64,000 bases of DNA from contig JABILG010000019.1 in NCBI GenBank assembly GCA_018654605.1, forward strand, positions 88,742-152,741, given 5' to 3'. Below are positions 5,476 through 21,024 of this stretch, one piece after another; within the stretch, counting starts at the first letter, position 1, and each line of letters starts with the position of its first letter. The translations under genes were made by a program, and so were the position numbers. The notes beneath the pieces are model-generated. The model saw nothing but the letters and a program-made list of their open reading frames with translations. It was not told where the DNA came from and did not search any database. The stretch is from a bacterium (GTDB lineage: Bacteria; Desulfobacterota_D; UBA1144).

Positions 5476-8100
5476 ATGAAATCATCTGATATAAGAAAGA
5501 AGTTTTTGGATTTTTTTAATGATAAAAGTCATGGCTTAGTTGCAAGTTCTGGTCTAATTCCTAAGAATGATCCAACTTTATTATTTACTAATGCTGGCAT
5601 GGTTCAATTTAAAAATGTTTTCTTGGGTTTAGAGAAGTTTAAACATGCTCGGGCTGCATCTTGTCAAAAATCCCTAAGGGCAGGCGGAAAGCATAATGAT
5701 TTAGAGAATGTGGGAAGAACTAGTAGGCACCATACTTTTTTTGAAATGCTGGGAAATTTTTCATTTGGAGACTATTTTAAAGAAGACGCAATATCTTTTG
5801 CTTGGGAGTTTCTAACTAAAGAACTAAAGATAGATAAGAACAGGCTGTATATAACTGTCCACAATGGAGACAATGAGGCTAGAGAGATTTGGCTTAACTC
5901 AATAAAGATCAACAAAGATAGAATATATAAATTAGGTGATAAGGATAATTTCTGGTCTATGGGCGACACAGGACCATGTGGACCCTGTTCTGAGATTATG
6001 TATGACATAGGAGAGGCAAATTCGAATTGCCTAAACCCGGAGAATTGTTCTGTTGAATGTGAGTGTGGAAGATTTCTTGAAATATGGAATCTAGTTTTTA
6101 TGCAATTTAATAGAGGTGAGGATGGACAGCTTACACCTTTACCAAGGCCAAGCATCGATACTGGCATGGGCTTAGAAAGACTAGCATCAGTTCTGCAAGA
6201 TGTTAAAAGTAATTATGATACCGACCTATTTGAATATTTGACTAATTATGTTGCTACTTTCTTGGGGACAGAGTATGGGAAAGACAACGAAACAGATATA
6301 TCAATTCGAGTTTTATCCGATCATGCAAGAGCTGTGACTTTCTTAATCTCAGATGGTGTCATTCCTTCTAGCGAAGGTAGAGGATATGTAGCTAGAAGAA
6401 TACTAAGAAGAGCCGTACGTCACAATAAGAAGTTGGGAATTTCAGATCCTTTCTTACATAACCTTGTCGGTTTAGTTGTTGAGGAGATGAAGAGTTTTTA
6501 TCCGGAGTTGGGAAGTCAAAAGGATAACATTATTTCAATCGTCATAAACGAAGAAAAGAAGTTCTTATCAACCATAGATAGGGGATTTGACCAGCTTAAG
6601 GAAGCTATGAGTATGTCTTCAAGAACAAAGGTTCTCTCAGGGAAGGATGTATTTAAGCTTTATGACACCTATGGTTTTCCAGTAGATTTAATTGAAGACA
6701 TCGTAAGTGAAACAGACTATGTATTGGATATGAAAGCATACGAAGAAGAGATGCTTAATCAAAAGAATTCGTCAAAGAAAGCTTCGAAATTTAAGAATTT
6801 AGTGGGAGAGGCAATTGATTTAACAAAGATTATCAATCTGGATAATATAACAAAATTTGTTGGATATAATAGTCTTGATTTAGAGTCTAAAATTTTAGCA
6901 ATAATTAAAGATGACGAAATTGTTAGCTCTGCCTTTGAAAAAGAAAGAGTAGGGGTCGTATTAAAGTCTTCACCGTTCTATGCAGAATCTGGTGGTCAAA
7001 TAGGTGATAAAGGAGTTATTGAAACATCCTCATCCATAATTGATGTATTTGATACACAGAAAACAAAAGAAGGGTTCTTTATTCATAGTGGGATAGTAAA
7101 GAGAGGTGAAGTTAGGAATGGTGATAAAGCTAATGGTAGAGTTGATAAAATCTTCAGAGACCGAATATCTGAGCATCATTCTGCCACTCATATACTTCAT
7201 TCTTCTCTAAGAGAAATACTTGGTACCCATATTAGGCAAGCAGGCTCATTGGTAAAGAGCGATAGATTAAGATTTGATTTTAGTCATTTTTCAAATATTG
7301 ATAATGACACCCTCAAAGAAATCGAGAATTTATCAAATGAAAGAATCAGAATGAATAATGAAATTGTGATTCAAGAAAATGTTGAGTACAAAAAAGCTAT
7401 TAAAAATGGGGCAACCGCTTTTTTTGAAGATAAGTATGGTGACTTTGTTAGAGTGGTTAGAATAGGAGATTTTAGTATGGAGCTTTGTGGTGGGACACAT
7501 ATAAATAGTTCTGGTCAAATAGGTTCCCTATATATTTCATCTGAATCATCTATATCGTCTGGTATTAGGAGAATTGAGGCACATGTTGGAGAATCAGGTT
7601 TTAAGTATATAAGTAATATCAAGGATTTTTTAACAACCTCTTCTTCTTTGCTTAATTCGTCAATTGAGAAAGTACCTAATAGCATAGAAAGAATACAGAA
7701 AGAGAACGACGCTCTAAGATTAAAGGTTTCCTCGTTTGAGAAAAAAGCAACCAAGAGCCTAGCGGACCAAGTCTTGTCAGATTGTGAATCCTTTGATGAT
7801 ATCAAGATAGTTTCTTATTTAGGTAAAGATATGACTTCATCTCAATTGAAGAACCTTTGGGACGACTTAAAGAAAAATAAAAATGTTATTGCCCTCTTAG
7901 CTTCAAACAATAGAGAAAGTTCGATAATAATTTGTGCTGCTAGTAAAGGTATAAAGAATTTCGATTGTAAGGTTTTTCTAAATGAAATTGCTACTAATAT
8001 TAATGGAAAAGGTGGTGGCAAGAGCAACCTAGCACAATTTGGTTGTGACACCATTAATAGTCTTGATGAGATTGTAGTGCTTATTAAAAATCAGCTGTAA
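5476..8100 (+). CDS. alaS: alanine--tRNA ligase
   Basis: 874 aa; FLDFF..KSHGLVASS..NDPTLLFTNAGMVQFK class II AlaRS N-terminus, editing domain HxxxH motifs. Confidence 0.95.
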   Translation: MKSSDIRKKFLDFFNDKSHGLVASSGLIPKNDPTLLFTNAGMVQFKNVFLGLEKFKHARAASCQKSLRAGGKHNDLENVGRTSRHHTFFEMLGNFSFGDYFKEDAISFAWEFLTKELKIDKNRLYITVHNGDNEAREIWLNSIKINKDRIYKLGDKDNFWSMGDTGPCGPCSEIMYDIGEANSNCLNPENCSVECECGRFLEIWNLVFMQFNRGEDGQLTPLPRPSIDTGMGLERLASVLQDVKSNYDTDLFEYLTNYVATFLGTEYGKDNETDISIRVLSDHARAVTFLISDGVIPSSEGRGYVARRILRRAVRHNKKLGISDPFLHNLVGLVVEEMKSFYPELGSQKDNIISIVINEEKKFLSTIDRGFDQLKEAMSMSSRTKVLSGKDVFKLYDTYGFPVDLIEDIVSETDYVLDMKAYEEEMLNQKNSSKKASKFKNLVGEAIDLTKIINLDNITKFVGYNSLDLESKILAIIKDDEIVSSAFEKERVGVVLKSSPFYAESGGQIGDKGVIETSSSIIDVFDTQKTKEGFFIHSGIVKRGEVRNGDKANGRVDKIFRDRISEHHSATHILHSSLREILGTHIRQAGSLVKSDRLRFDFSHFSNIDNDTLKEIENLSNERIRMNNEIVIQENVEYKKAIKNGATAFFEDKYGDFVRVVRIGDFSMELCGGTHINSSGQIGSLYISSESSISSGIRRIEAHVGESGFKYISNIKDFLTTSSSLLNSSIEKVPNSIERIQKENDALRLKVSSFEKKATKSLADQVLSDCESFDDIKIVSYLGKDMTSSQLKNLWDDLKKNKNVIALLASNNRESSIIICAASKGIKNFDCKVFLNEIATNINGKGGGKSNLAQFGCDTINSLDEIVVLIKNQL

Positions 8101-8974
8101 TACCATTTTTAACAAGAATTTTTTTTATTTTTTTTATTGCAGATTTCTCAATTTGCCTCACTCGCTCCCTAGAAATCTTAAATTTTTCTCCCAATTTTTC
8201 TAAAGTAACTTGTTTGTCAGATAATAATCTATTCTTTATTATGTAAGCTTCTCTTTCATTAAGAGTTTCTATAGCTTCCTTCAAGCTGGACTCTAATTCT
8301 TTCTTTTGCTGATCCTCTATTATTATATCTTCCTGACTTTGTGAACCAGAAGGCAAAAAGTCAATCTTTGTTTGTTTTTCATTTGCCTTAATTTCGTCGT
8401 CTAGAGAGTAGTCTTTTCCACCCATCCTTTGATCCATTTCTTTTATTTCTTTAATTGAGACCTTAAGATCTCTAGATAATTTTGAATAGTATTCCTCTAA
8501 GGAAAGATCTCCAGAGTTGTATAAACTTTTAGCCGACCTTATTTTGTAGAATAGTTTTCTTTGTCCTTGTGTTGTTCCTATCTTTACAAGACTCCAGTTC
8601 TTCATTATAAAATTTTGTATGTATGCTCTTATCCACCATACTCCATAGGAAATTAATCTATATCTCTTTGTCGGATCAAATTTAGTAACTGCTTGCATAA
8701 GGCCAAGGTTTCCCTCTTGTATAACATCCATTAAATTGAGACCATAGTTTTTATATTCCATAGCAATTTTTACTACAAATTTAAGGTTTGCAGTTATTAG
8801 CTTCCTAGCGGATTCTAGGTTACCCGAGTCCCTATATTCCTGAGCATATTTTGCTTCTTCTTCACGTGATAAGATTTTATAATTACTTATTTCTGTCAGA
8901 TATTTCTCCAGTGAATTTGCTGGTACTGGCAGATTCTTATTATTATTCTTTAGCTTATTATTATTTTTCCTCAT
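8084..8974 (-). CDS. rpoH: RNA polymerase sigma-32 (heat-shock sigma factor)
   Basis: Sigma-70 regions 2-4; QGQRKLFYKIR matches the RpoH box Q(R/K)(K/R)LFFNLR; 296 aa. Confidence 0.8.
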   Translation of the reverse strand: MRKNNNKLKNNNKNLPVPANSLEKYLTEISNYKILSREEEAKYAQEYRDSGNLESARKLITANLKFVVKIAMEYKNYGLNLMDVIQEGNLGLMQAVTKFDPTKRYRLISYGVWWIRAYIQNFIMKNWSLVKIGTTQGQRKLFYKIRSAKSLYNSGDLSLEEYYSKLSRDLKVSIKEIKEMDQRMGGKDYSLDDEIKANEKQTKIDFLPSGSQSQEDIIIEDQQKKELESSLKEAIETLNEREAYIIKNRLLSDKQVTLEKLGEKFKISRERVRQIEKSAIKKIKKILVKNGITADF

Positions 8975-9033
8975 TAATATTTAGTAATCATTATACTTTT
9001 ATAGGTTTATCTTGCCAATAAGAAGTGATAATG

Positions 9034-9062
9034 CTTGACTGTTATAAGCATTTACATTAAAT
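9034..9062 (+). promoter_or_regulatory. candidate sigma-70 promoter for tRNA-Asn (TTGACT, 17-nt spacer, TAAATT), about 22 nt upstream of the tRNA 5' end
   Basis: Spacing and hexamer match seen in sequence only. Confidence 0.25.
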
Positions 9063-9084
9063 TGTTAGTTTTATAGCTTAACAT

Positions 9085-9157
9085 TCCGGAGTAGCTCAGC
9101 TGGCAGAGCAGGTGACTGTTAATCACTTTGTCGGGGGTTCAAATCCCTCCTCCGGAG
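9085..9157 (+). tRNA. tRNA-Asn (anticodon GTT), no encoded CCA
   Basis: Cloverleaf: 7-bp acceptor stem TCCGGAG/CTCCGGA, D-arm AGCTCAGCTGGCAGAGC, anticodon loop CTGTTAA (U33, GUU, A37), T-loop GGTTCAAATCC. Confidence 0.85.
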
Positions 9158-9183
9158 CGATAGTAATCGTAAACTATCATTAA

Positions 9184-9435
9184 TTGGTTATAATTTACAT
9201 TATAATTATGAGAAATTTTCTTTGCTCTTTCTTTATACTGTTCTTTTTCTCTCGTACCGCTTTTGCATATATAGACCCAGCGTCTGGAAGTACTATAATA
9301 TCGCTTATTATTGGAGGCACAGTGTTAATAGGAGTCTTTCTGAAGACTTTTTGGTATAAGCTTAAATCGTTAGTTGGGATTAAAGATGTAAACAATAAAC
9401 CTGTTAGGACAACTGAAAACAATAAGAACCTGTAA
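9184..9435 (+). CDS. small signal-peptide/TM protein, first gene of the operon (stop overlaps next start as TAATG)
   Basis: MRNFLCSFFILFFFSRTAFA signal-like segment followed by a second hydrophobic helix; translational coupling to next ORF. Confidence 0.35.
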   Translation: MVIIYIIIMRNFLCSFFILFFFSRTAFAYIDPASGSTIISLIIGGTVLIGVFLKTFWYKLKSLVGIKDVNNKPVRTTENNKNL

Positions 9436-12428
9436 TGGATACTCCTAATGTCTTCATTCTTGGTGCATCCTATCCAATAGCCGGGAAACAACCATCGAGT
9501 CTTCAAAGTATCACTGAAAAAACTAAAGTGCTCGATTGGCAGCTTGATAGTTTTAAGTCGATTAATTGGAAGAAGATTAATTTTCTAGGTGGTTACAATA
9601 TAGAAGATATTATAAAACATTACCCAGAAGTTAATTATATTTTAGTTGAAAATTGGGAATCAAATTCTTTACTAGATACTTTTTTTCAATGTCCTATGGA
9701 AGATTCTCCCGCTATTTTCACTTATGCAGATACGATTTTTCGTCCGGAGATTTTAAAGAAAATATCAAAAAGCAAAGCAGATATTGCTGTTGCGATAGAT
9801 ATTAACTATGAAACTCGTTATGATAATCGTTCGAAAGCTGATATAGGAATTGCAGAGATAATTATTCCTAATCACGGAGAATTTAAAGGTCAGAATTCTG
9901 AATTTACTGGTCTCTTTGGCATGCAACCTCATGTTGCCAAAATAGTAAGGACAATAAAGGGTAAGATTCCAGGGGTAAACCTCTTGGACCTTCTTTCTTA
10001 TTTTGAGAAAAGTGGATTACATATTGATTATATTGACGTTGGAACTAATTGGGCTGAATTGAACGAGCCACAAGATATAGCAAGGTTTATATTGGGGAAT
10101 AAAGCTCAGACATTGTCAAGATTAGCCCCTATGGTTAGGAAGAGTAAAATTGGAAAGCAGATTAGCTTTACTGTTAATGAGTGGTTCAACAAGAAGGATT
10201 TAATTATTTCAGAGATTCAAGAATTTTTTCATGAGAAGAGATTAATCATAAGAAGTAGTGCGTTAGATGAAGATGGATGGAGCAACTCCCTTGCCGGCCA
10301 ATACAAAAGTATCCCAAATGTAGATAGTGGTTCAATTAAGTCGATAATTAAAGTCGTTAAGGAAGTTATATCGTCTTATGGTGGAAGTAGAAATGATAGC
10401 AATGACGAAGTCTTAATTCAGGAATTTCTTGATGATATAAGTATTTCTGGCGTAGTATTTACATGTCAGTTAGAAACAGGTGCGCCTTATCATACTTTTA
10501 ATTTTCAAGATACTGAAGGTTCAATAGAAGCGATAACCTCAGGCACATCTCAAGATGACAGAACTATTGTATTACATAGAAGGGAAATTGCAGAATTAAA
10601 GAAGTTGGAACCAAAGCTTGAACCAGTCAGAAAGGCGATAGACGAATTAAAAGACTTGCTGTCTTTTGATAAATTAGATATCGAGTTTGCAATAGACAAG
10701 AAAGGACTAGTTCATATTCTTCAGGTTCGACCAATTGCAGTAGACCACAGAGAGTACGACGATGTAACTAATTTATTTGAGGACAAACTAGATGAGGCAG
10801 CTGCTTTATTTGTTTCTTTCCAAGATCAATCAGATGTCCTCTTAGGTAGCACAACATCTTTTAGTAATATGTCAGATTGGAATCCTGCGGAAATTATTGG
10901 AATTCATCCTAATCCTTTAGCTTTTAGCCTCTATAGGTTTTTGATAACTGATGATGTTTGGGCTGAACAACGTTCAGAGTTTGGTTATCGTAAAATTAAG
11001 GAATGCCCATTAATCATTGCATTTTGTGGTCAGCCCTATGTCGATTTACGAGCTAGCTTCAATTCCTTTATCCCAGCCAACATTGATAGCACATTAGCAA
11101 AGAAGTTAATTACAGCCTATCTAGGCAACCTATCTTCCAGACCTCAGTATCATGATAAAATTGAGTTTGATATTGCGATGACTTCATGGACGCCAACTTT
11201 TAGAAGGGATGCAGAGGAAAGATTGATTTCTTGGGGTATAAATTCTAAAGAAATTAATAAACTTGAAGAAGGATTAAAGCTAATAACCTCAAGGGCCATA
11301 ATAAATTTTGAGAAAAATACTTCTATTGAAACTTTGACAAAAAATCGCGACAAAATTTTACAAAATAAAATGGGATTGTTAAACAAAGGACTTTCTTTGC
11401 TTGTTGATTGTAAGAAGAATGGGACGCTAGCCTTCGCACATTCTGCACGACATAGCTTTGTTGCCATAAGTTTTCTTAAGAGTTTTATAGAAATTGATAT
11501 ATTCACTAAAGACGAAGTAGACTTGCTATTATCTTCCATCGAGGGTGTTTCTACTAGTATGCGAAAGAACCAAATTGCTTTACTCGATCGTAAAATTACC
11601 TTGGATGAGATGATTCTAAAATACGGCCACCTGCGCCCAGGTACATACGACGCTACGGCTCCTGCCTATTGGGAAGACTCTCAGTATTATTTAAAAGCAG
11701 AAAATAGTAATATGAATATAAAGTCCTCAAATTTTGATTTATCTAAAAAACAGGAAAACTCGATAGTGGAATTTATGAAGGATCTTGGTGTAAGTATTGC
11801 TCCCAATAAGCTAATTAATTATATGAAAAGTGCAATTGTAGCTCGAGAGGAAACAAAGCTAGAATTTACTCGTAATTTAAGCCTGGCGTTAGACTGTTTC
11901 GTAGAATTTGGCAAAGAGATTGGGTTAAGTCGTAAGGAGGTTGTTTATTTAGAATATAAGGATTTTGAACAACTTAGTTTAGATGGTTTAGATTTTAATG
12001 AAGTTAAACAAATTATTAGTTCTCGTATGACTCAAGACAAGCTGAATCATATGTTTGAGATTCCGCCATTTATAAAAAGTAAAGAAGATTTTTATTGTTT
12101 TGAGCATTATGATGCTCAAATAAATTATATTACCAATAAGAAGATTATTGGTAAATTAAAGAATTTAAATACAAGAGTTCACGACAATTTAGAAGGCAAG
12201 ATTATTTTGACACATCAGGCCGATCCTGGGTACGATTGGGTTTTTAGTCGTAATATTGTTGGATTGATAACTGAACATGGTGGCGCTAACTCTCACATGG
12301 CGATTAGAGCAGCTGAACTAGGATTACCCGCCGCTATAGGTATAGGTAGCAAGTTGTTCAATAAATTAGCCAAAAGTAATAAAATTAAATTAGATTGTGG
12401 TAACCATAATATTATAATTATTAATTGA
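9435..12428 (+). CDS. fusion protein: N-terminal LicC-like nucleotidyl(cytidylyl)transferase domain + PPDK/PEP-synthase-type ATP-grasp domain + C-terminal phosphohistidine 'swivel' domain (glutamine-kinase / rifampin-phosphotransferase-like architecture)
   Basis: aa ~1-230 N..Y...N...SL and WAELNEPQD resemble LicC-type NTases; middle RSSALDEDGWSNSLAGQYKS is the PPDK_N ATP-grasp motif; C-terminal ITEHGGANSHMAIRAAELGLPAAIG is the PEP-utilizing mobile His motif (His codon 12294-12296); no TIM-barrel domain after it. Confidence 0.6.
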   Translation: MDTPNVFILGASYPIAGKQPSSLQSITEKTKVLDWQLDSFKSINWKKINFLGGYNIEDIIKHYPEVNYILVENWESNSLLDTFFQCPMEDSPAIFTYADTIFRPEILKKISKSKADIAVAIDINYETRYDNRSKADIGIAEIIIPNHGEFKGQNSEFTGLFGMQPHVAKIVRTIKGKIPGVNLLDLLSYFEKSGLHIDYIDVGTNWAELNEPQDIARFILGNKAQTLSRLAPMVRKSKIGKQISFTVNEWFNKKDLIISEIQEFFHEKRLIIRSSALDEDGWSNSLAGQYKSIPNVDSGSIKSIIKVVKEVISSYGGSRNDSNDEVLIQEFLDDISISGVVFTCQLETGAPYHTFNFQDTEGSIEAITSGTSQDDRTIVLHRREIAELKKLEPKLEPVRKAIDELKDLLSFDKLDIEFAIDKKGLVHILQVRPIAVDHREYDDVTNLFEDKLDEAAALFVSFQDQSDVLLGSTTSFSNMSDWNPAEIIGIHPNPLAFSLYRFLITDDVWAEQRSEFGYRKIKECPLIIAFCGQPYVDLRASFNSFIPANIDSTLAKKLITAYLGNLSSRPQYHDKIEFDIAMTSWTPTFRRDAEERLISWGINSKEINKLEEGLKLITSRAIINFEKNTSIETLTKNRDKILQNKMGLLNKGLSLLVDCKKNGTLAFAHSARHSFVAISFLKSFIEIDIFTKDEVDLLLSSIEGVSTSMRKNQIALLDRKITLDEMILKYGHLRPGTYDATAPAYWEDSQYYLKAENSNMNIKSSNFDLSKKQENSIVEFMKDLGVSIAPNKLINYMKSAIVAREETKLEFTRNLSLALDCFVEFGKEIGLSRKEVVYLEYKDFEQLSLDGLDFNEVKQIISSRMTQDKLNHMFEIPPFIKSKEDFYCFEHYDAQINYITNKKIIGKLKNLNTRVHDNLEGKIILTHQADPGYDWVFSRNIVGLITEHGGANSHMAIRAAELGLPAAIGIGSKLFNKLAKSNKIKLDCGNHNIIIIN

Positions 12429-12444
12429 GGTACAATTTATAATT

Positions 12445-13074
12445 ATGAAGATATTAGCTATAAGCCAAAGAGTAGAAAATATTTATGAATACTCTGAGAA
12501 ACGCGATTGCTTAGATCAAAGGTGGACCAGCCTGATTCATAGGCTTGGTTTTTTGCCTCTTCCTTTATCTAATCTTGCTTCACCCTCAGAGTTTATAGAA
12601 AATATAACCCCTTCAGCCATTATCTTAAGTGGAGGAAACAATATAGCCAAAGTAGATAAATTAGCTTTAGATGTTTCAACTGAGCGAGATAAATTTGAAG
12701 AAAGATTAATCAAGATTGCAATAAAGAAAAATATCCCAATTATAGGTGTGTGTAGGGGGATGCAAATGATCAACTTGTTCTTTGATGGATCAATGTCGCA
12801 GGTTGTGAATCACACAGGCGTCAAACACGAGATTACTTTTGTAGGTAAATATTTAGAAGAAGAATCTAGAGAAGTTAATAGTTACCATAGATGGTGTATT
12901 CAGGAGCCAGGTCTCGGAAGGTCGTTAGTTCCATTAGCTATAGCGAACGACGGAACAGTCGAGTCTTTTTATCATGAAAAGTATCCAATTCTTGGTATTA
13001 TGTGGCACCCTGAACGAGAGGAGCCACACGTGCAGGACGATTTAAATCTTATTAAAAAGTTTGTTCAATCATGA
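12445..13074 (+). CDS. class I glutamine amidotransferase-like / peptidase C26 family hydrolase
   Basis: GVCRGMQMIN nucleophile-elbow Cys, downstream HPE catalytic His/Glu; 209 aa. Confidence 0.7.
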   Translation: MKILAISQRVENIYEYSEKRDCLDQRWTSLIHRLGFLPLPLSNLASPSEFIENITPSAIILSGGNNIAKVDKLALDVSTERDKFEERLIKIAIKKNIPIIGVCRGMQMINLFFDGSMSQVVNHTGVKHEITFVGKYLEEESREVNSYHRWCIQEPGLGRSLVPLAIANDGTVESFYHEKYPILGIMWHPEREEPHVQDDLNLIKKFVQS

Positions 13075-13850
13075 GGGCACTAATTCTAGCCGCTGGTGAA
13101 GGCTCAAGATTAAGGCCATTAACTAAAGATAAACCTAAAGCTTTAGTAGAACTTTGTGATAAGACTTTACTTGAAAGACAAGTCTCAATCTTACAAAAAG
13201 CTGGTATTACCGATATTGCGATAGCAACCGGCTACAAAGGAGAGCAAATACAAGAGTTGGGTTTTAATTGTTATCATAATCCTGATTATGCCACTAGCAA
13301 TATGGTTTATAGTCTTTTTAATGCTTTGCCGTTTTTGGAAAGAGAAGGAGATTTAATAATATCTTATGGTGATATTGTTTACGAGTTAGACAATTTAAAA
13401 AAAATAATTACGTCAGATGCAGCTGTAAATGTAATGGTAGATAAGGAGTGGTTTAAATATTGGAAGATGAGATTTGTAGATCCTTTAACAGATGCAGAGA
13501 GTCTAATATTAAATGATGATGGAACAATAAAGGAGCTGGGTTTAAAAACAGAGAGCTATAACGATATTCAAGGTCAGTATATTGGGTTAATAAAAGTAAG
13601 ACGTGATAAGTTGAAAGCTTTAATAAGTTTTTATCATAATCTAAAGATAAAAAAATCATCTAATATTAAAGATCTTAATAATATGTTTTTAACAGATTTT
13701 ATACAATTGTTAATCAATGCAGACTGGGATATAAGGGCTATATTAATTAGTGGAGGATGGTTGGAGGTAGACTCTTTAAAAGATCTTAATCTTTATGAGG
13801 GATTAGCAAAAAGTAAGGAGCTAGATTCTTATTGTAGGTTAGATAAGTGA
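13071..13850 (+). CDS. sugar-/alcohol-phosphate nucleotidyltransferase (LicC/CTP:phospho-X cytidylyltransferase-like)
   Basis: MRALILAAGEGSRLRPLTKDKPKALVEL signature; ATGA overlap with upstream gene. Confidence 0.8.
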   Translation: MRALILAAGEGSRLRPLTKDKPKALVELCDKTLLERQVSILQKAGITDIAIATGYKGEQIQELGFNCYHNPDYATSNMVYSLFNALPFLEREGDLIISYGDIVYELDNLKKIITSDAAVNVMVDKEWFKYWKMRFVDPLTDAESLILNDDGTIKELGLKTESYNDIQGQYIGLIKVRRDKLKALISFYHNLKIKKSSNIKDLNNMFLTDFIQLLINADWDIRAILISGGWLEVDSLKDLNLYEGLAKSKELDSYCRLDK

Positions 13851-14989
13851 GAACTTTTTTTAAACAACTAAGTCAATTGATTAGCTTTACTCAGTTATCA
13901 AAAGCTGAGAAAAGTATAGTCTTTTATTCTGAAGGCAAAGATTCTTGGATACATTTAAAAGGACTTATAGAGGAATTTTTGAAAACTTCTAAAATACATA
14001 TTTGCTATATAAGCTCTGAAGAGAATGACCCTGGTTTAAACTTAAAAGATCCTAAATATAAAGCTTTTTGTATAGGAAGTGGATATATGAGGGATTGGTT
14101 GTTTTCTAATATTCAGACAAACATAATGGTTATGACAATGCCTGACTTAAACTCTTTTCAGCTGAAGCAATCTAGCTATAATGTGCACTATGTTTATCTA
14201 CAGCACTCGTTAGTTAGCCTTCATATGGCATACCGTAAAGGCGCCTTTGATTATTTTCAAACTATTTTTTGTGCTGGAGCACATCACGTTAAGGAGCTGA
14301 GACGTATTGAACAGATTCAGAATTTGAAGCCTAAGAATCTTGTTCAGCATGGTTATAGCCGTTTAGATCAGATTATAAAAGAAACCCCTAGAAATTTAAG
14401 AATTACCAGATCTCTTAAACCTATTAAGCATATATTGATTGCACCTTCGTGGGGGGAAAATACTATTATTGATATGATTGGCGAGGAATTAGTTAGCATA
14501 TTGTTAACAGATGGGTTCAAAGTTACTTTGCGCCCTCATCCTCAGACTATCAAATTATCATGGCATAAAGTAGAGCAAATATTAAAAAAGCATGAAGCAA
14601 ATTCTTTATTTAATTTAGAGGTTGAGATGTCTAGCCAAGTATCTCTAAGTGAATCTGATTTGATGGTTAGTGATTGGTCAGGCGCCGCGCTGGACTATGC
14701 GTTTGGTCTCAATAAGCCTGTATTATTTATCGATCTTCCAAAAAAAGTGAATAATTATGATTATAATGAACTAGAAATTGAACCTCTTGAGGTATCTATC
14801 CGTTCAAAAATAGGCGGGATTCTTGCTTTAGATGAGTTGCCTAATATAGCAACTTGTATTAACGCTTTATTAAAGAGTTATGATAATCAAAAGCTGATGC
14901 AGCTTTCTAATGATACGGTGTATAATTTAGGGTCTGCTGACAGTGTTGGCGTCCAAGCGTTAGAAGAATTAATTAATAATAATGTATGA
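13847..14989 (+). CDS. CDP-glycerol glycerophosphotransferase (TagB/TagF) family phosphotransferase
   Basis: LIAPSWGEN (cf. TagF YAPTWR) and MVSDWSGAALDYAFGLNKPVLFIDLP (cf. LITDYSS...DF..L.KP) motifs; GTGA overlap start. Confidence 0.6.
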   Translation: MRTFFKQLSQLISFTQLSKAEKSIVFYSEGKDSWIHLKGLIEEFLKTSKIHICYISSEENDPGLNLKDPKYKAFCIGSGYMRDWLFSNIQTNIMVMTMPDLNSFQLKQSSYNVHYVYLQHSLVSLHMAYRKGAFDYFQTIFCAGAHHVKELRRIEQIQNLKPKNLVQHGYSRLDQIIKETPRNLRITRSLKPIKHILIAPSWGENTIIDMIGEELVSILLTDGFKVTLRPHPQTIKLSWHKVEQILKKHEANSLFNLEVEMSSQVSLSESDLMVSDWSGAALDYAFGLNKPVLFIDLPKKVNNYDYNELEIEPLEVSIRSKIGGILALDELPNIATCINALLKSYDNQKLMQLSNDTVYNLGSADSVGVQALEELINNNV

Positions 14990-17253
14990 CGATGAGATAT
15001 AAACAAGCAGTAAACTTATTAGCCTTCTTTAGCTTGGTAATCTTTGTAGTTATACCAGGCACTCTCTATTTGTTTAACCATAATCAATGGAACTATGATT
15101 ATTGGCTTCTAATATATTTCTGTGGATTTGGTGCGATAAGTTTTATTGCTCTATATCTTGTTTACTATGCGATTAATAAATTCTCTAACAGGTATGCAGA
15201 AATATTCGCCTATATTATCTTTTCTATAGGCTTAATTACATTATTGAATGATACATTGTCCCCAGTCCAGCTTGGCTTGTTGGATGGAAGTAGGATTCAT
15301 AGCAATGAGCCATTCTTCTATACATTAATTGAATCCATCATCACTTTTATAGCTATAGGATTTGTATGGTTTTCGGTTAAGAAAAATAAACAGTGGATAT
15401 ATATAATTATCAAACCCATATATTTCGTGAGTGCAGGACTGATTATCTTTAGCCTGGTACTTCAGGATGGCTTTCAAGAGAAAGAAGAGGCTAAGAATAA
15501 ATTGCAAGTTCGAGAGTTGCCTAATATATACCACTTCCATATTGATGGTATGCAAACAGACTATTTTTTACGTTATATAAATAATCATCCAGAAGTTAAA
15601 AAGAAGCTTGAAGGTTTTACACTATTTGAAAAGAACATTGCTAATTATCATAGTACAATGTTGTCTTTACCTAGTTATATGACCAGTACAACACATTTAG
15701 AAGGTAGGTTTGATAAATGGCTGAAGAGTTATGACCAGGGCCTACTGAGAAAATTAAAAAAGCGAGGCTATAGATTAGTCCATAATAGCAACGCTCCTTA
15801 TAGAAGTAATTATTTTGATAAGATAATCGCGATTCCAGAACTGTTAAAAAGATATAACGGTGCTCAACATCTATCTATAGTAGAATTTACCAGGATATGG
15901 CTGACTAAAATAATTCCTAATTTCTTAACAAATGAATCTTTATCCCTAGGAAAAGAAATTGGTAAACGTTTTTTTTATATACTCAATCCTAATCATGACA
16001 CAGACATTGCGTTAACCATGGAAGATGGGACAGCGGCACTATCTGGGATTCTATTATTTAAAGACATGATGTCAGATATTGATTATTACTCGCGTCCTAA
16101 TCAGTACGTATTCTCTCTTAATTCTATTCTACACGATAGCTATGTTAGTTCTCCAAGCTGTAAGATAGAAAAAAGACCTGATTTTCCGGTAGCCCAAAGA
16201 TACTACCGACAGCTTGAGTGTGCAATGATGCTCATTGAAGAATTTGTGTACACACTAAAAAGCCTAGATCGCTATAATGATTCACTAATTGTGATTCATG
16301 GTGATCATGGGTCTGCCTATGCGGGTCAACTGCTAGATTTCCAAGATAGTTCCTTTCAAACAAACATGGATAACGCGGACATGTCACCTTTCGACACTGT
16401 AATTGGGAGTAAAAGCTTAAAAGTGCTTGAATCCAAGGCTAGGGCATTGTTAATGGTTAAGCCTATATTCGCCACTGGTGAAATGGTTATATCTAATCTT
16501 CCTACACATTTACTAGATGTGTATCCAACCATCATGGGACAGATTGGTGTTAATAATCTAGAGAACATTAAAGGCGTAGATTTATTCAGCAATAAAGATA
16601 TACAAGACAGACAGCGTTATTTTTATTACATGGGTGGTAGTTCGCATCATGCTCAAATAACAAATTATCATACTATGATTCCGGATTATGATGGTAATTC
16701 GGGTATTTTATCGTTGGTTCCAAAGAGTACAGGTAAAACAACGGCAAAATCTTTCTTTAAGAATGCAAAAGATATAAAAGAATATAGAGATATTAAGTTC
16801 TATTACACAACTGTGAACGGGAAGCTTGAAAATAATAGAGCTTGGATATTCGTTGAAGGAATAGACCTTCCTCGAAATTGGGGATCCTGGACAAACAGTG
16901 ACAAGGTTACCTTAGCCTTTGTGCCAGAGAATCCAAGCCCGTTAGAATATAGAGCATTAACTTTAAGGATATCTGATATATTCGTTAACTTTAAAAATCC
17001 ACAGCTTAGCGCCAAGTTTTATTTAAATAAAAAATTAATTGGCTCACTAGTTTTTGGTATGCCTAAGAGCCAATACTCTTTTCCACAAGATGTTGAATTT
17101 GAACTCTCTAAGGATCTAATTATTTATGACCAGCCCAATGTGTTGGAGATATATATAGAAGGAGCTAATTCAGAAAGAGGTTTAGGAATAGGTGTAGATG
17201 ATAGAAAACTAGGGCTGGCTCTAGTTGAGTTATCATTAAAAAAATATAAGTGA
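14986..17253 (+). CDS. polytopic membrane protein with sulfatase/alkaline-phosphatase-superfamily catalytic domain (LtaS/EptA/OpgB-like phospho-group transferase) plus ~200-aa C-terminal extension
   Basis: ~5 N-terminal TM helices; NIYHFHIDGMQTDYF metal-site region and VIHGDHGSAYAG (GDHG) sulfatase motif; ATGA overlap start. Confidence 0.6.
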   Translation: MTMRYKQAVNLLAFFSLVIFVVIPGTLYLFNHNQWNYDYWLLIYFCGFGAISFIALYLVYYAINKFSNRYAEIFAYIIFSIGLITLLNDTLSPVQLGLLDGSRIHSNEPFFYTLIESIITFIAIGFVWFSVKKNKQWIYIIIKPIYFVSAGLIIFSLVLQDGFQEKEEAKNKLQVRELPNIYHFHIDGMQTDYFLRYINNHPEVKKKLEGFTLFEKNIANYHSTMLSLPSYMTSTTHLEGRFDKWLKSYDQGLLRKLKKRGYRLVHNSNAPYRSNYFDKIIAIPELLKRYNGAQHLSIVEFTRIWLTKIIPNFLTNESLSLGKEIGKRFFYILNPNHDTDIALTMEDGTAALSGILLFKDMMSDIDYYSRPNQYVFSLNSILHDSYVSSPSCKIEKRPDFPVAQRYYRQLECAMMLIEEFVYTLKSLDRYNDSLIVIHGDHGSAYAGQLLDFQDSSFQTNMDNADMSPFDTVIGSKSLKVLESKARALLMVKPIFATGEMVISNLPTHLLDVYPTIMGQIGVNNLENIKGVDLFSNKDIQDRQRYFYYMGGSSHHAQITNYHTMIPDYDGNSGILSLVPKSTGKTTAKSFFKNAKDIKEYRDIKFYYTTVNGKLENNRAWIFVEGIDLPRNWGSWTNSDKVTLAFVPENPSPLEYRALTLRISDIFVNFKNPQLSAKFYLNKKLIGSLVFGMPKSQYSFPQDVEFELSKDLIIYDQPNVLEIYIEGANSERGLGIGVDDRKLGLALVELSLKKYK

Positions 17254-17310: not shown

Positions 17311-17688
17311 ATGGTTTTATTCACTAAAGTTACCGGATTAATTTTAATTTTTCTTGGAGGATTGGGATATTATTTATATGAAACTCGTACTGTATTAATT
17401 CCTATAATCTTGGGCTCGTTAATTCTCATTTTAGGATTGGTTGCAGATAATCTAAACAGAAAAAGAATGGCTATACACATCGCTGTAATGTTAACAGTAG
17501 TGGGTCTGGTTGTGTGCTGGAGCGGAATCAAAGAACTTCCGCTATTGTTATCTTGTGGTGGAATATTGACTTGTGATGCGGTAAATAGACCCGTTGCAGT
17601 TTTATTTAGGTCAACAATGTTCATCGTTCTTTTTCCTTACTTTATTGCTTCAATAATATTTTTTATTAAAGCAAGAATGAGTAAATAA
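17311..17688 (+). CDS. hypothetical 4-TM membrane protein
   Basis: Strong RBS AAAGGAG 7 nt upstream; four hydrophobic helices. Confidence 0.4.
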   Translation: MVLFTKVTGLILIFLGGLGYYLYETRTVLIPIILGSLILILGLVADNLNRKRMAIHIAVMLTVVGLVVCWSGIKELPLLLSCGGILTCDAVNRPVAVLFRSTMFIVLFPYFIASIIFFIKARMSK

Positions 17689-17709: not shown

Positions 17710-18153
17710 ATGGGATTCCCAAAGATAAAATCTAATATATCAGAGATTAGCTCTTATACGGGTAGCAAAGAGAAGTATCCAATGTTCATAGCAAGAGTTC
17801 AGGCAGGCTTCCCTTCGCCAGGAGATGACTATATTGAAAAGAATCTTGATTTAAATGAGCTTTTAATAAAGAACCCCTCGGCAACTTTTTTTGTAAAAGT
17901 TGAAGGAGATTCTATGGTTAACGCTGGAATAAACTCGGGGGATACTTTAGTCGTAGATAAAGCGGTAGAGGCCAAAGACAAGAGTGTGGTAATTGCTTAT
18001 ATTAATGGAGAATTGACAGTTAAAAGGATTTGGCTTGGAAAGGGAAAGGTTTTTTTAAACCCTGAGAATGAAGATTTTAGCCCTATAGAAGTTACAGAAG
18101 AGACAGATTTTGATATATGGGGAGTCGTGACCTACGTAATACATAAGGTTTGA
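17710..18153 (+). CDS. umuD: translesion DNA polymerase V accessory subunit UmuD (S24 peptidase, LexA-like)
   Basis: [40 protein letters not shown] aligns closely with E. coli UmuD including AG cleavage site, Ser (GDSM) and Lys (KRIW..GK). Confidence 0.8.
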
Positions 18154-18154
18154 T

Positions 18155-19420
18155 ATGAGTAAGTATATAGCTTTAATTGATTGTAATAATTTCTATGCCT
18201 CATGTGAGCGCGTATTTGACCCATCATTACAAGATAAGCCAGTTGTTGTTCTCTCTAATAATGATGGATGTGTTATCGCGAGGTCTGCCGAAGCTAAGAT
18301 GGTTGGAATAAAGATGGGAGAGCCATTGTTCAGGTGCAAAGATATTATTAAGAAAGAGTCGGTAAGAGTTTTTTCATCTAACTATACTTTATATGCGGAC
18401 ATGTCTAATAGGGTAATGAGCATCATTAAGAATCATTTTGAAGACGTAGAGATTTATTCTATAGATGAGGCATTTGTTTTTATTGAGACAATTTCAGTTG
18501 ATAATTTATCTAAAGAGCTTGTAGCTTTAAGAAATAAAATCTTAAAATGGACTGGGATACCTGTATCTATAGGTGTGTCGACAACAAAGACTTTGGCAAA
18601 ATTAGCAGGAAGAAAAGCAAAAAAGAATTTAGGCGTTTACTGCCTTTGTGCTCGTAAAGATTTTACCAATGTTTTGAGAGAAACACCGGTAGGATCAGTC
18701 TGGGGGATAGGACGTAGGTTAGAAAAAAGAATTCTTTTAAAGGGCATATCTAATGCTTACCAGTTAAGTTTTTTTGATCACAAAAAAGCCAGAAGTCTTG
18801 GTAGTATAAACCTTGTTCGCACCATTTTGGAGCTTAATGGGCTTTCATGTCTGGGTATTGATTCAGCACCTGAGAACAAAAGACAGATTACAACTTCTAG
18901 GGCTTTTGGAAGCCCCATATATACCTTAGATTTGCTTCAGGAGGCAGTTTCAGTGTATATGTCTCGCGCTGCCGAAAAGCTGAGATTTCAGGGTTCAAGT
19001 TGCTCTACTATTACTGTAGCTCTTTCTACAAATCGTTTTAGTCAAAGAGAAGATTATAAGTTCCTTGTTAAAACCCAATCATTAATTTCTTCGACAGACT
19101 CAACGTCTAAGCTGATTAGTGTAGGTAAAGAAATTTTAGAGTCTATATTTAAGAAAGGACTCGGCTATAAGAAGGCTCATATCTTTCTTTCCGGCCTGGA
19201 GAAATCTACCTCAAAACAATATTCGCTAGAAGATAATGTTGCTTCTATAGCCAAGGAGACGAACCTTATGAGAGTGCTGGATAGGCTAAATATTTTCTAT
19301 GGTAGAGATACATTGAAATATGCTAGTACAGGGATTTCACGTGATTGGCTTATGAAAAGAGAGAAGAAATCTCAAAGCTATACAACTAATTGGAGCGAGA
19401 TTCTTACAATACAACTATAA
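18155..19420 (+). CDS. umuC: Y-family DNA polymerase V catalytic subunit UmuC
   Basis: [20 protein letters not shown]...[16 protein letters not shown]-terminus typical of UmuC; 421 aa; 1-nt spacing from umuD. Confidence 0.85.
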
Positions 19421-19831: not shown

Positions 19832-21024
19832 TAATATAATGACACCACTAAGTTAGTGCCAGATTGAATAGAGCCATTTAAAGAAGGTTCTGATAAATAG
19901 TCACCAGCAAAATATATTTGATTAGAATATTCATAAAAACATTTATCTCTGAAGTTAAATAAATCCTTTGTTGAAGGAAGTGCATTAACAACTTTGATAT
20001 CTTTTAAGAAATTGATTTCATCCATATTCTTAAAATAACTTAAAATTTCATTTTCTATAGTGTCTTTGTCGCTATTAATTGATAAAGAGGAGGCGGAAAG
20101 AATTAGTTGATCATTGTCCAGTCTGTTGAATGACATATTGGCAATATTCTTTGATTCAGGGAATAAGTATATTAAGCAATCATCAATATCCTTAATTTTA
20201 ACTTTAAAGTAGAAGCACCTAGTACTGTTATATTCTAGATTTTTAAAAAATCCTTTATTTATTTTTTGGTCAATGGCACCCTCGATTTGAGGGTCAGTAC
20301 ATAATAGTTTTTTAAAATAAAAAGTTTCCCCACTATTTGTTGTTAAATAATTACTATAAATTTGCTCCACTTTGACATTTTGTTTGATTTTTCTATAATC
20401 AAGCTTTTCTGCAATTTTTTGGATTATCTGGTTTATTCCATATTGGGGTATGCAGACCTGACTAGTTGCAAAGAGATTGAATATGAAAAAAAAATACCTT
20501 AGAGGAACATTTAGTTTTTTATCTAAAAATACTCCTTGAAAAAAAGATATAAAGAAATCATTGATAAACGACTCTGTGAATCCAAAATCTTTAAGAAATT
20601 TTAACACCTTAATGTTTTGATTTTCATATCTATTGCTTAGCATGAAAAGCTTAATTAATAGATATTTATCTTTTATAGTAAAGCCTGGGAAAGTATTATT
20701 GAAAAATATAGCCTGAAAGTTTTTTAGAGGATTTAATACCTTGAATATCTTATCTTTTTTCTTTATAGCAAAGCCAGATTTAAACTTTTTATATGGAATA
20801 TTATTAATTTCCGGAAATAATTTTAGTGTCGGATAATCTCTTAGTAGAATTTGAAAGCCTCTATCTAAATTATATTCAGATAGACTTATTGTTGAAATTT
20901 TTCCACCCATAGTAATGTTTTTATCTAAGATTAAATAACTAATGTTCTTGGCAGATAAAAGTTTAGCTATAGTAAGTCCTGTTATACCGCTTCCAATTAT
21001 AATATTATCATATGAGTTGTTCAT
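19831..21024 (-). CDS. FAD/NAD(P)-binding amine-oxidase-type oxidoreductase
   Basis: N-terminal IIIGSGITGLTIAKLL...LDKN..GGK dinucleotide-binding fold; 397 aa. Confidence 0.65.
   Translation of the reverse strand: MNNSYDNIIIGSGITGLTIAKLLSAKNISYLILDKNITMGGKISTISLSEYNLDRGFQILLRDYPTLKLFPEINNIPYKKFKSGFAIKKKDKIFKVLNPLKNFQAIFFNNTFPGFTIKDKYLLIKLFMLSNRYENQNIKVLKFLKDFGFTESFINDFFISFFQGVFLDKKLNVPLRYFFFIFNLFATSQVCIPQYGINQIIQKIAEKLDYRKIKQNVKVEQIYSNYLTTNSGETFYFKKLLCTDPQIEGAIDQKINKGFFKNLEYNSTRCFYFKVKIKDIDDCLIYLFPESKNIANMSFNRLDNDQLILSASSLSINSDKDTIENEILSYFKNMDEINFLKDIKVVNALPSTKDLFNFRDKCFYEYSNQIYFAGDYLSEPSLNGSIQSGTNLVVSLY

Follow-up and report, generated by a model that had tools for sequence, protein, structure and literature searches.

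RESULTS

Organization of the operon

The window analysed here is a 64-kb stretch of contig JABILG010000019.1, and the genes in question are two neighbors within it, which encode a hydrolase resembling class I glutamine amidotransferases (GATase) and a free-standing nucleotidyltransferase (NTase). Both open reading frames (ORFs) were confirmed, the GATase gene at 12445-13074 (+ strand, ATG start, 209 aa) and the NTase gene at 13071-13850 (+ strand, ATG start, 259 aa). The two proteins are deduced, with rather better than even confidence, to catalyze steps in a branch of the phosphoramidate pathway that is independent of the CDP-amidate kinase and lacks methyltransferases, CDP-amidate being used directly. 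The features of the operon are as follows.

9208-9435, + strand: 75-aa membrane hairpin protein; TAATG overlap between its stop codon and the fusion gene start
9435-12428, + strand: 997-aa fusion protein (NTase-like N-terminal domain and glutamine kinase module)
9435-10118, + strand: N-terminal NTase-fold domain, residues 1 to ~228 of the 997-aa protein; apparently a degenerate paralogue of the free NTase
10071-12428, + strand: Cj1418-type L-glutamine kinase module, residues ~213 to 997, with PPDK_N ATP-grasp and phosphohistidine swivel domain (His954)
12445-13074, + strand: predicted gamma-glutamyl-CDP-amidate hydrolase (Cj1417-like), 209 aa, Peptidase_C26/class I GATase; 16-nt gap after the fusion gene
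13071-13850, + strand: predicted CTP:phosphoglutamine cytidylyltransferase (Cj1416-like), the 259-aa free NTase; ATGA overlap (13071-13074) with the GATase gene
13847-14989, + strand: 380-aa TagF/TarL-family (Glyphos_transf) protein; GTGA overlap with the NTase gene
14986-17253, + strand: 755-aa LtaS/EptA-like membrane protein (Pfam Sulfatase); ATGA overlap with the TagF-like gene
17311-17688, + strand: 125-aa polytopic membrane protein, operon membership uncertain

With four overlaps (TAATG, ATGA, GTGA, and ATGA) and a single 16-nt gap, 9208-17253 is one tightly, translationally coupled operon on the + strand. The ATGA overlap of the GATase and NTase genes, already described in the initial annotation, was seen in the sequence at 13071-13074.

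The hydrolase and the free cytidylyltransferase

The 209-aa protein matched Pfam Peptidase_C26 (95.8 bits) and GATase (55.5 bits). Its top NCBIfam family was NF045546, gamma-glutamyl-CDP-amidate hydrolase, with 158 bits (E 2e-46) over nearly the full length, the runner-up family scoring 45 bits. The class I GATase signature recognized in the initial annotation was assigned to Cys103 (GVCRG), His188, and Glu190 (WHPE), a triad that was invariant in 72 cassette homologues. Assignment to TrpG, PabA, or GuaA failed, the scores being 25 bits for trpG_papA (cut-off 121), 35 bits for PRK06895 (cut-off 265), and 43 bits for guaA_Nterm (cut-off 172), and no synthase partner was found in the operon. In the metagenome contig L004 (9370-10029), the GATase gene was called as a 219-aa product that had no Pfam match and overlapped the NTase gene by 29 nt; possibly, the population includes a version of the hydrolase gene with a 3' frameshift.

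The 259-aa protein matched Pfam NTP_transf_3 and NTP_transferase. Its catalytic set was intact (G9, G11, R13, K23, D101, E232, and D234), and the signature of its family was LAAGxGxRLRPLTxxKPKxL. The closest solved relative was LicC (1jyk; E 5e-15, over the N-terminal 85 residues), which agrees with the LicC likeness first proposed for this protein. All sugar-1-phosphate NTase models scored far below their cut-offs, with 77 bits against 292 for TIGR03992 (the best), 53 against 320 for rmlA_long, 43 against 300 for G1P_cyt_trans, and 33 against 327 for galU, and these matches were confined to the N-terminal ~55 to 125 residues. By homology and its active-site residues, the free NTase is predicted to be a CTP:phosphoglutamine cytidylyltransferase. 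Some of the homologues with about 50 to 58% identity are in fact named "L-glutamine-phosphate cytidylyltransferase" by JGI.

The kinase module and the fused NTase-like domain

Residues 213 to 996 of the 997-aa protein matched NF004508/PRK05849 with 874 bits (cut-off 501), and the PPDK_N and PEP-utilizers domains were matched as well. NF004508 is named only "hypothetical protein," and we take it to include Cj1418. The swivel-histidine motif, GGANSH954MAIRAAE, was invariant, and JGI names close homologues of the module "glutamine kinase." The module was 30 to 34% identical over its full length to the kinases of clusters that contain an adenosine 5'-phosphosulfate (APS) kinase and a methyltransferase. 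Kinase, GATase, and NTase alike were 30 to 36% identical over the full length to their counterparts in two such plasmid clusters, Azospirillum pAZO_p6 and Smac51. Judged from these comparisons, the module has the architecture of the Cj1418 glutamine kinase.

No Pfam match was obtained for residues 1 to ~228. This N-terminal domain (N-domain) was related to the free NTase by BLASTP (25% identity, E 2e-5) and, family against family, by hhalign (99.0%, E 3e-18) over 212 columns, which is the whole domain. An AlphaFold (AF2) model built on 21 homologues had a mean local confidence (pLDDT) of 82.9 and a predicted template modeling (pTM) score of 0.83. The only internal segment of low confidence was the loop at residues 16 to 28, which is predicted to be disordered. 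The top Foldseek matches of the model were inositol-1-phosphate cytidylyltransferase (4jd0), PntC (6pd2), and RmlA, with TM scores of 0.6 to 0.68. These data bear out the earlier proposal that the operon has one fused and one free NTase module.

The catalytic phosphate-binding loop (L/A)xxGxGxR(L/M) and the catalytic Lys were not present in the fused domain, though its fold is that of an NTase. The signature of the fused family is LGAG(R/K)PAxGxKP(S/A)AL, where a 5-residue deletion removes the GxR(L) part of the loop, and Ser or Ala stands at the catalytic Lys. The window copy, LGASYPIAGKQPSSL, is degraded further than its family: it has Ser12, Tyr13, and Gln19 where 85 to 96% of the family has Gly, Arg/Lys, and Lys/Arg, and the compensating Arg13 and Lys19 are therefore lost as well. 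Positions that were invariant across the family are D34, W35, Y97, D99, T100, F102, D122, R128, R132, D136, E156-F-T-G, W206, E208, N210, D214, and K223, many of which align with substrate-side conserved positions of the free NTase. When 1.84 billion representatives were searched with its profile, the N-domain was found only at protein N termini, in complete proteins of 960 to 1,070 aa (173 clusters at E <= 1e-30).

The sequence and model data identify the N-domain as a true NTase-fold paralogue of the free NTase that appears catalytically degenerate. Most plausibly it is a pseudo-NTase whose role is to hold the free NTase at the kinase or to sense a CDP-linked product. The initial annotation had offered two explanations for the presence of two NTase modules, namely, two different CDP-activated intermediates or one inactive, scaffolding copy, and had suggested inspection of the (G/A)xGxR and Lys residues in both. 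Because the fused copy has lost the GxGxR(L) loop and the catalytic Lys while the free copy is intact, the second explanation is the better supported.

Membrane and transferase partners

The initial annotation did not include the TagF-like, LtaS-like, and 75-aa partners, and it is these that suggest how the donor is used. The 75-aa protein (MRNFLCSFFILFFFSRTAFAYIDPASGS...KTFWYKLKSL) consists of a hydrophobic helix, the segment AFA-YIDPASGS, a transmembrane (TM) helix, and a basic tail, and its family follows the pattern hydrophobic helix, A-x-A-Y(I/L)DPG(S/T)GS, TM helix, K(T)(Y/F)W(Y/H)K. At least 27 loci from many phyla have it adjacent to the cassette (tblastn E values down to 1e-13), and gene calling recognized the ORF in every metagenome copy. 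It is overlooked when ORFs are listed with a threshold of 90 aa. In two Colwellia loci (L021:14445-15716 and L086:14485-15756), the 75-aa protein is fused to the N terminus of the TagF-like protein, and for this reason it is probably the membrane anchor of the TagF-like enzyme, which in turn implies a membrane-bound acceptor. The same fusion led us to reject the alternative that the 75-aa protein is itself the modified substrate.

The 380-aa protein gave a partial match to PF04464 (35.6 bits, cut-off 22.1) at profile positions 150 to 292, and its family profile matched TarL (8va1; E 0.007). Invariant residues were H120, RPH231P, and D276-W-S278. With its conserved His and (S/T)D(W/Y)S(S/G) motif, the protein belongs to the Glyphos_transf family, its donor specificity being a prediction. 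The 755-aa protein has ~5 TM segments within residues 5 to 164, an alkaline phosphatase superfamily domain, and a C-terminal extension of ~290 aa. It matched Pfam Sulfatase with 35.2 bits, and its family profile matched LtaS (2w5r; E 5e-12). The residues D187, T224, D440, and H441, corresponding to the Thr nucleophile and metal ligands, were present, and the CxPxR sulfatase motif was not; the protein probably acts on the periplasmic side. For both the TagF-like and LtaS-like proteins, single-sequence PDB searches gave nothing useful, and the relatives named above were found via family profiles.

Absence of the 3'-kinase and methyltransferases

That no Cj1415-type kinase or methyltransferase lies within 10 kb of these genes was stated in the initial annotation and was found to hold across the whole window. 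Pfam lists covering ~10 kb to either side of the NTase gene contained no APS-kinase-like gene and no pathway methyltransferase. A motif search of all 64 kb found a clear P-loop NTPase motif only in a YchF-like GTPase, with two other pattern matches in MreB-like and Fmt-like ORFs, and motif I of S-adenosylmethionine (SAM) methyltransferases only in the 16S rRNA dimethylase KsgA (RrnaAD, 167 bits). The APS kinases and methyltransferases of Campylobacter-type clusters likewise had no tblastn or HMM match in the window and none in 80 related loci.

Campylobacter-type reference clusters, three in number, were found by tblastn of plasmids. In that of Azospirillum lipoferum pAZO_p6, an APS-kinase domain forms the C-terminal part of an 846-aa protein, and the cluster also has genes for a class I SAM methyltransferase, a 784-aa kinase, a GATase, an NTase, and sulfotransferase-domain proteins. 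On the plasmid of deltaproteobacterium Smac51, the kinase, GATase, and NTase genes are accompanied by those for a SAM methyltransferase and for an APS kinase (165 aa, PRK05541 subfamily). The third, on Agrobacterium vitis pRvVAT039a (L092, locus 7929-13018), has a short kinase, a GATase, and an NTase and, after them, a LysE exporter and a CDP-alcohol phosphatidyltransferase; it lacks an APS kinase. It adjoins asparaginase, TauD, and aminoacyl-tRNA synthetase-related genes and may represent a small-molecule or lipid phosphoramidate pathway. The kinases of these clusters align with the 997-aa protein only from residue ~212 onward, that is, they lack the N-domain and are here called short form, while kinases carrying the N-domain are called long form. 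The free NTase was 36% identical (E 1e-48) over the full length to the short-form NTase of Azospirillum and 34% identical to that of Smac51, and in the window the short-form NTases matched the free NTase only and not the fused domain.

The neighborhoods of 86 long-form loci (79 of them clustered) and 83 short-form loci (80 of them from a metagenome scan, with short-form alignment) were then compared by HMM searches of six-frame ORFs within ~10 kb. An APS-kinase-like neighbor was present in none of the 86 long-form loci and in 71 of the 83 short-form loci (Fisher 2e-35), although many of the short-form contigs are much shorter. A methyltransferase of the cluster type was found once in the long form, as a weak match of 29 bits, and in 60 of the 83 short-form loci. 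The lack of both enzymes in the window is therefore not a local chance but characterizes the entire branch that bears the N-domain. The reverse distribution was obtained for the TagF-like neighbor (37/86 long form versus 3/83 short form) and the LtaS-like neighbor (23/86 versus 1/83). By clustering, a Glyphos_transf neighbor, all three clusters being counted, was present in 44 of 79 long-form loci and a sulfatase-like membrane protein in 30 of 79. The GATase and the free NTase each followed the fusion gene in 72 of these 79 loci, most of the others being on truncated contigs, and the NTase mostly stood two genes after the fusion gene.

In half of the short-form loci from the scan (40/80), an APS-kinase domain is fused to the N terminus of the glutamine kinase, giving proteins of ~973 aa; an NTase-like domain was found there in none. 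The fused APS-kinase domain occupies the same N-terminal position as the long-form pseudo-NTase, and the fusion joins the first and last enzymes of the 3'-phospho-CDP-amidate route. Examples among loci L096-L175 are L143:6326-9247 and L104:7422-10343. The commonest short-form gene order was APS kinase, glutamine kinase, GATase, NTase, methyltransferase (APSK-KIN-GAT-NT-MT). These loci also contain Sulfotransfer_1/3 proteins and an enzyme of the inositol monophosphatase family (CysQ-like), as in L123:3567-4952, L146:2830-3819, L129:1218-2099, and L089:13013-14107. 3'-Phospho-CDP-amidate resembles 3'-phosphoadenosine 5'-phosphosulfate (PAPS) as a donor and would call for sulfotransferase-fold and CysQ-like enzymes (PMC11800397). 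The gene content suggests that the short-form sulfotransferase-fold enzymes are phosphoramidate transferases for this PAPS-like donor and that a 3'-nucleotidase recycles the by-product.

Distribution of the long form

In a scan of one genome per species, the long form was found in at least 247 species genomes. The best 80 loci were from Dadabacteria, Thermodesulfobacteriota, Colwellia, Vibrio, Psychromonas, Marinobacter, Pseudomonas, Halomonas, Legionella septentrionalis, Woeseiaceae, SAR86, Flavobacteriales, Verrucomicrobiales, Chloroflexi, Acidobacteria, Spirochaetales, and three haloarchaea. Shewanella-related carriers among the genomes scanned were S. pealeana and a metagenome-assembled genome (MAG) of the Shewanellaceae. 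Pseudomonas canadensis Feb-92, Pseudomonas sp. BR20, Vibrio hepatarius E3R11, and Colwellia psychrerythraea GAB14E are culturable strains that have this operon type. LicD-family genes adjoin the cassette in Thalassotalea, and a LicD-like cluster was found in Oceanospirillum and Natronomonas. The cassettes of V. vulnificus, S. pealeana, V. alfacsensis, and a Pseudohalocynthiibacter plasmid lie within Wzx/Wzy polysaccharide loci, and those of Marinobacter lie in a region of the lipopolysaccharide (LPS) core type with GT4, GT2, and lipid A acyltransferase genes. The standard annotations on these clusters are "PEP-utilizing enzyme," "gamma-glutamyl-GABA hydrolase family," "phosphocholine cytidylyltransferase family," and "CDP-glycerol glycerophosphotransferase family."

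In many gammaproteobacterial operons, positions +4 to +7 after the fusion gene also hold genes for a membrane protein of the YidC/60KD_IMP kind and for a 451-aa protein that matches Formyl_trans_N weakly (L013, L018, L027, L030-L034, L044, L061, and L065); both are absent from the window. Also absent is an 804-aa protein of Colwellia, which from its sequence has apparent YidC-like N-terminal and sulfatase-like C-terminal parts.

DISCUSSION

Proposed pathway

In Campylobacter jejuni, the enzymes that make the donor of O-methyl phosphoramidate (MeOPN) are the glutamine kinase Cj1418, the cytidylyltransferase Cj1416, the hydrolase Cj1417, and the CDP-amidate 3'-kinase Cj1415 (PMC11800397, PMC6429109). 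CDP-amidate is to be expected as the intermediate, since the three first enzymes of the window share families with those of Campylobacter and are encoded in the order seen in the short-form clusters. From homology to Cj1418, the C-terminal ~785 residues of the 997-aa protein would phosphorylate L-glutamine on its amide nitrogen via His954. The free NTase, given its homology and intact active site, would then join CTP and glutamine phosphate to form CDP-L-glutamine, and the 209-aa Cys-His-Glu hydrolase would remove glutamate to leave cytidine diphosphoramidate (CDP-NH2).

The anchored TagF-like enzyme, comprising the 75-aa and 380-aa proteins, is proposed to take CDP-NH2 without 3'-phosphorylation, the reaction being R-OH + CDP-NH2 -> R-O-P(O)(O-)NH2 + CMP, where the acceptor would be a hydroxyl of a membrane-associated molecule. 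This step is suggested by gene context and by how TagF, FtaD, and LicD work. TagF, LicD, and CDP-alcohol phosphatidyltransferases all use a CDP-X donor and release CMP, and since the cassettes adjoin transferases of these kinds, direct use of CDP-amidate is the simplest reading. More speculatively, the LtaS-like enzyme might, on the periplasmic side, relay the group to the final envelope acceptor or prepare the acceptor. As no methyltransferase is present, the product would stay an unmethylated phosphoramidate. The N-domain would most likely dock the free NTase to the kinase or sense the CDP-linked product rather than make a second CDP intermediate. Gene structure, family and fold assignments, catalytic residues, the degeneracy of the fused NTase, cassette distribution, and branch associations were computed directly; from these we infer every reaction as well as which donor the TagF-like enzyme uses, what the N-domain does, and what the acceptor is. 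On sequence grounds, the window most likely belongs to a distinct branch of the pathway, in which the donor is transferred as an unmethylated phosphoramidate to an envelope acceptor.

Several points weigh against this interpretation. The window covers only 64 kb of the genome, and a kinase or methyltransferase could lie elsewhere. The Campylobacter enzymes were represented by curated NCBIfam models and annotated plasmid clusters (Azospirillum and Smac51) rather than by the sequences of Cj1415 to Cj1418, and, there being no curated model or solved structure for Cj1416, the free NTase was judged by homology and active-site residues. The 158 bits of the GATase on NF045546 are below the curated cut-off of 250. 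The GATases of the clusters having an APS kinase and a methyltransferase score lower still, at 107 and 75 bits, and for that reason the cut-off appears to be narrowly Campylobacter-specific and too narrow to argue against the hydrolase assignment. The loci within the long-form and short-form sets are phylogenetically related, so that the counts overstate independence, yet the separation is still almost complete. No recognizable transferase was nearby in 24 of the 79 long-form loci, some of which are on truncated contigs. Ten Marinobacter long-form loci (L046, L049, L054-L056, L058, L059, and L062-L064) have a sulfotransferase-family (Sulfotransfer_3) neighbor with no TagF and no APS kinase within 10 kb, and, conversely, three short-form loci combine a TagF-like gene with an APS kinase. 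A strict rule by which the N-domain always goes with TagF and the short form with the kinase was rejected, the Marinobacter, A. vitis, and three short-form TagF loci being exceptions.

Alternative interpretations

The alternative that survives best, although we consider it unlikely, is that the N-domain is catalytically active and two nucleotide-activated intermediates are made. For example, the fused domain might cytidylylate glutamine phosphate by channeling, and the free NTase might activate another head group, destined for the TagF-like or LtaS-like step. Strong purifying selection acts on the N-domain, whose conserved polar residues include many invariant Asp, Arg, and Glu, so that it may have an unrecognized catalytic role; this weighs on the main interpretation too. 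The metal-site positions YxD and E-x-N/D are kept and align with those of the free NTase, and the Arg/Lys13 and Lys19 of most family members could replace the lost Arg and Lys. The domain also sits where the short-form relatives have an active APS-kinase domain, and active NTase fusions are known, as in PntC-AEPT (6pd2); a phosphoenolpyruvate mutase-cytidylyltransferase fusion was proposed in a preprint on Borg elements. Against this, the 5-residue deletion in GxGxR(L) and the Ser/Ala in place of the catalytic Lys are family wide, the window copy has in addition Ser12, Tyr13, and Gln19 in place of Gly, Arg/Lys, and Lys, and the loop is predicted to be disordered. Short-form NTases match only the free NTase, which is present in nearly every cassette and so is not optional. 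A degenerate N-domain is thus preferred.

An ordinary Campylobacter-type MeOPN pathway, with the 3'-kinase, the methyltransferases, and the real transferases encoded elsewhere in the genome and the TagF-like and LtaS-like genes being unrelated neighbors, is judged improbable. It would gain from the limited view of the genome, from the sulfotransferase-family neighbor in Marinobacter, which would suit a 3'-phosphorylated donor, and from the three short-form loci with both TagF and an APS kinase. It is opposed by the census, in which the kinase lay within ~10 kb of no long-form locus (0/86) but of most short-form loci (71/83), and by the fusion of that kinase to the glutamine kinase in half of the short forms. 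Nor do the partners look like unrelated neighbors: the TagF-like gene overlaps the NTase gene (GTGA) and keeps the same position across phyla, and the gene for the anchor of the TagF-like enzyme opens the operon.

It is also conceivable, but very unlikely, that no P-N chemistry takes place and that the free NTase, as an enzyme of the LicC/TarI kind, supplies CDP-choline, CDP-glycerol, or CDP-ribitol to a decoration resembling teichoic acid or consisting of phosphocholine, the kinase and GATase having some other function. LicC is indeed its best solved relative, some homologues are named "phosphocholine cytidylyltransferase family protein" (NCBI) or "choline kinase" (JGI), and the partners are TagF-like or LicD-like. 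The LicC match, however, was limited to the N-terminal 85 residues, which are the generic part, and there was no choline kinase or permease gene and no gene for the synthesis of glycerol-3-phosphate or ribitol-5-phosphate nearby. The NTase was nearly always accompanied by glutamine kinase and C26 hydrolase genes, and the NTase with which it shares 36% identity over the full length belongs to clusters that also encode an APS kinase and a methyltransferase. Lastly, the reading under which the initial proposal would have failed, a housekeeping sugar-1-phosphate NTase (RmlA/GalU/ManC) beside a PabA/TrpG-type amidotransferase subunit, accounts for the generic NTP_transferase and GATase Pfam matches but was refuted by the NCBIfam scores of both proteins, the sugar-1-phosphate models being far below their cut-offs and the TrpG/PabA-type models at 25 to 43 bits versus 158 for the CDP-amidate hydrolase, with no synthase partner, and it retains next to no probability.

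Relation to known systems

With the MeOPN pathway of C. jejuni, the window shares the PRK05849-type kinase with its swivel His, the LicC-fold NTase, and the C26 Cys-His-Glu hydrolase, and the order of kinase, GATase, and NTase is that of the short-form clusters. It differs in the lack of a Cj1415-type kinase and of a SAM methyltransferase (0/86 and 1/86 long-form loci), in the extra N-terminal pseudo-NTase predicted for the kinase, and in the partners, which are TagF-like and LtaS-like proteins and the 75-aa anchor rather than sulfotransferase-fold and CysQ-like proteins. The host differs as well: it is a marine bacterium, uncultured and Dadabacteria-like, and the branch extends over many phyla, archaea among them.

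The type A flagellin glycan of Clostridioides difficile involves the NTase FtaB/CD0242 and the TagF-like phosphotransferase FtaD/CD0244, with CDP-(N-methyl)threonine as the activated form (PMC10714395, bioRxiv 10.64898/2026.02.12.704994). Use of CDP-N-methylthreonine by FtaD was shown in a 2026 preprint (bioRxiv 10.64898/2026.02.12.704994; model in PMC10714395). As proposed for the window, a LicC-like NTase makes an unusual CDP head group, and a Glyphos_transf enzyme transfers the phospho-head group, which in C. difficile goes to a sugar, with release of CMP. The head group in C. difficile is phosphothreonine, a P-O ester, and involves a phosphoserine phosphatase-like enzyme, whereas that of the window is predicted to be a phosphoramidate derived from glutamine via the kinase and the hydrolase.

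Phosphocholine decoration by LicC/LicD and wall teichoic acid synthesis by TagD/TagF both employ a CDP-X donor and a CDP-dependent phosphotransferase. LicC (1jyk) is the nearest structure to the free NTase and TarL (8va1) the nearest to the 380-aa protein; unlike those systems, the window operon has no gene for choline or glycerol-phosphate supply, and its NTase is tied to a glutamine kinase and a C26 hydrolase. The 755-aa protein is like LtaS, EptA, and OpgB in having ~5 N-terminal TM helices, an extracytoplasmic domain, and the Asp/Thr/Asp-His residues, but it is very divergent, with no single-sequence PDB match, and carries the ~290-aa C-terminal extension. Catalytically inactive NTase paralogues with a regulatory or scaffolding function toward active ones are known in GMPPA with GMPPB, in eIF2B gamma/epsilon, and in the large subunit of plant ADP-glucose pyrophosphorylase. 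The likeness lies in a paralogue of NTase fold with a degraded signature beside an intact paralogue in the same pathway; here, the apparently degenerate copy is fused to the first enzyme of the pathway.

Phosphoramidate (P-N) decoration has so far been treated as nearly unique to Campylobacter capsules. The glutamine kinase was called "C. jejuni-specific" in one review (PMC9561416), and MeOPN was said in another to be found only in Campylobacter (PMC6429109). In the literature searched, to which the primary Raushel papers did not belong, so that a brief earlier mention of other homologues is possible, the pathway was described only for Campylobacter apart from the Borg-element preprint, which notes homologues of the pathway. 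For Vibrio, Colwellia, Marinobacter, and Pseudomonas, a literature search on phosphoramidate polysaccharides returned nothing relevant. Chemical studies have documented an unmethylated phosphoramide on LPS from Xanthomonas campestris and Shewanella sp. MR-4, and no genes were named for it in these reports (PMC3907429, PMC8042644, PMC3210612).

What appears to be new here is the occurrence of the same first three enzymes as in Campylobacter, in an abundant uncultured marine lineage, with different downstream wiring. The data suggest that the glutamine kinase family splits into two wiring schemes. One is PAPS-like and has an APS kinase, in many cases as part of the glutamine kinase polypeptide, together with proteins of sulfotransferase fold, a phosphatase resembling CysQ, and a methyltransferase. 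The other is CDP-alcohol-like and has the pseudo-NTase fused to the kinase, a transferase of the TagF-like or LicD-like kind, and an LtaS-like enzyme. If so, P-N envelope chemistry would be common in the ocean, candidate genes would be at hand for the unexplained phosphoramide on some LPS cores, and generic annotations would mask a coherent system that is present in culturable strains of Pseudomonas, Vibrio, Colwellia, and Marinobacter. As a broader and distinctly more tentative hypothesis, to which we give somewhat less than even weight, a second route to P-N bonds, with a mechanism of its own, would be widespread in marine and soil bacteria and in haloarchaea. It would comprise CDP-amidate, not phosphorylated further, as direct donor for a membrane-anchored TagF-type transferase, CMP being the leaving group, an LtaS-like enzyme that relays or completes the modification outside the membrane, and a pseudo-NTase that, by tethering the catalytic NTase or sensing the CDP-linked product, protects the labile N-phosphoryl intermediate, and it would be the missing origin of the Xanthomonas and Shewanella LPS phosphoramide.

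Genomic context and additional observations

The NTase protein was found, identical, in 106 indexed blocks of public assemblies. Of these, the 24 longest contigs were inspected, and the same operon was present in all six of the places displayed. The closest named genome was Candidatus Dadabacteria UBA1144, with 78 to 79% amino acid identity. Upstream, the operon is flanked by a divergent RpoH-like sigma-70-family gene and alaS (8084-8974 region), and downstream by umuD/umuC (Peptidase_S24 and IMS; 17710-19420). The alaS/rpoH flank is common to the MAGs NAT510 and cluster2_bin.15 and is not shared with UBA1144. The 125-aa protein directly after the LtaS-like gene had no significant Pfam match and was conserved only in the closest relatives (L009 and L010); it is possibly encoded by the last gene of the operon. 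In UBA1144 it occurs twice, at L009:7010-7384 and 17893-18267, with 60% and 50% identity.

The G+C content of the window is ~33%, and a scan of the operon for promoters and terminators was uninformative in such AT-rich DNA, with 46 sites observed against 40.6 expected. The lowest G+C content in the window (0.26) was found in the 2 kb around 21021-21731, where an ORF on the - strand follows the amine oxidase gene. This ORF has 236 aa in the window and in contig L002, and 369 aa in four other contigs with the identical NTase protein (e.g., L001:17951-19060), and may be a strain-variable or disrupted membrane protein gene.

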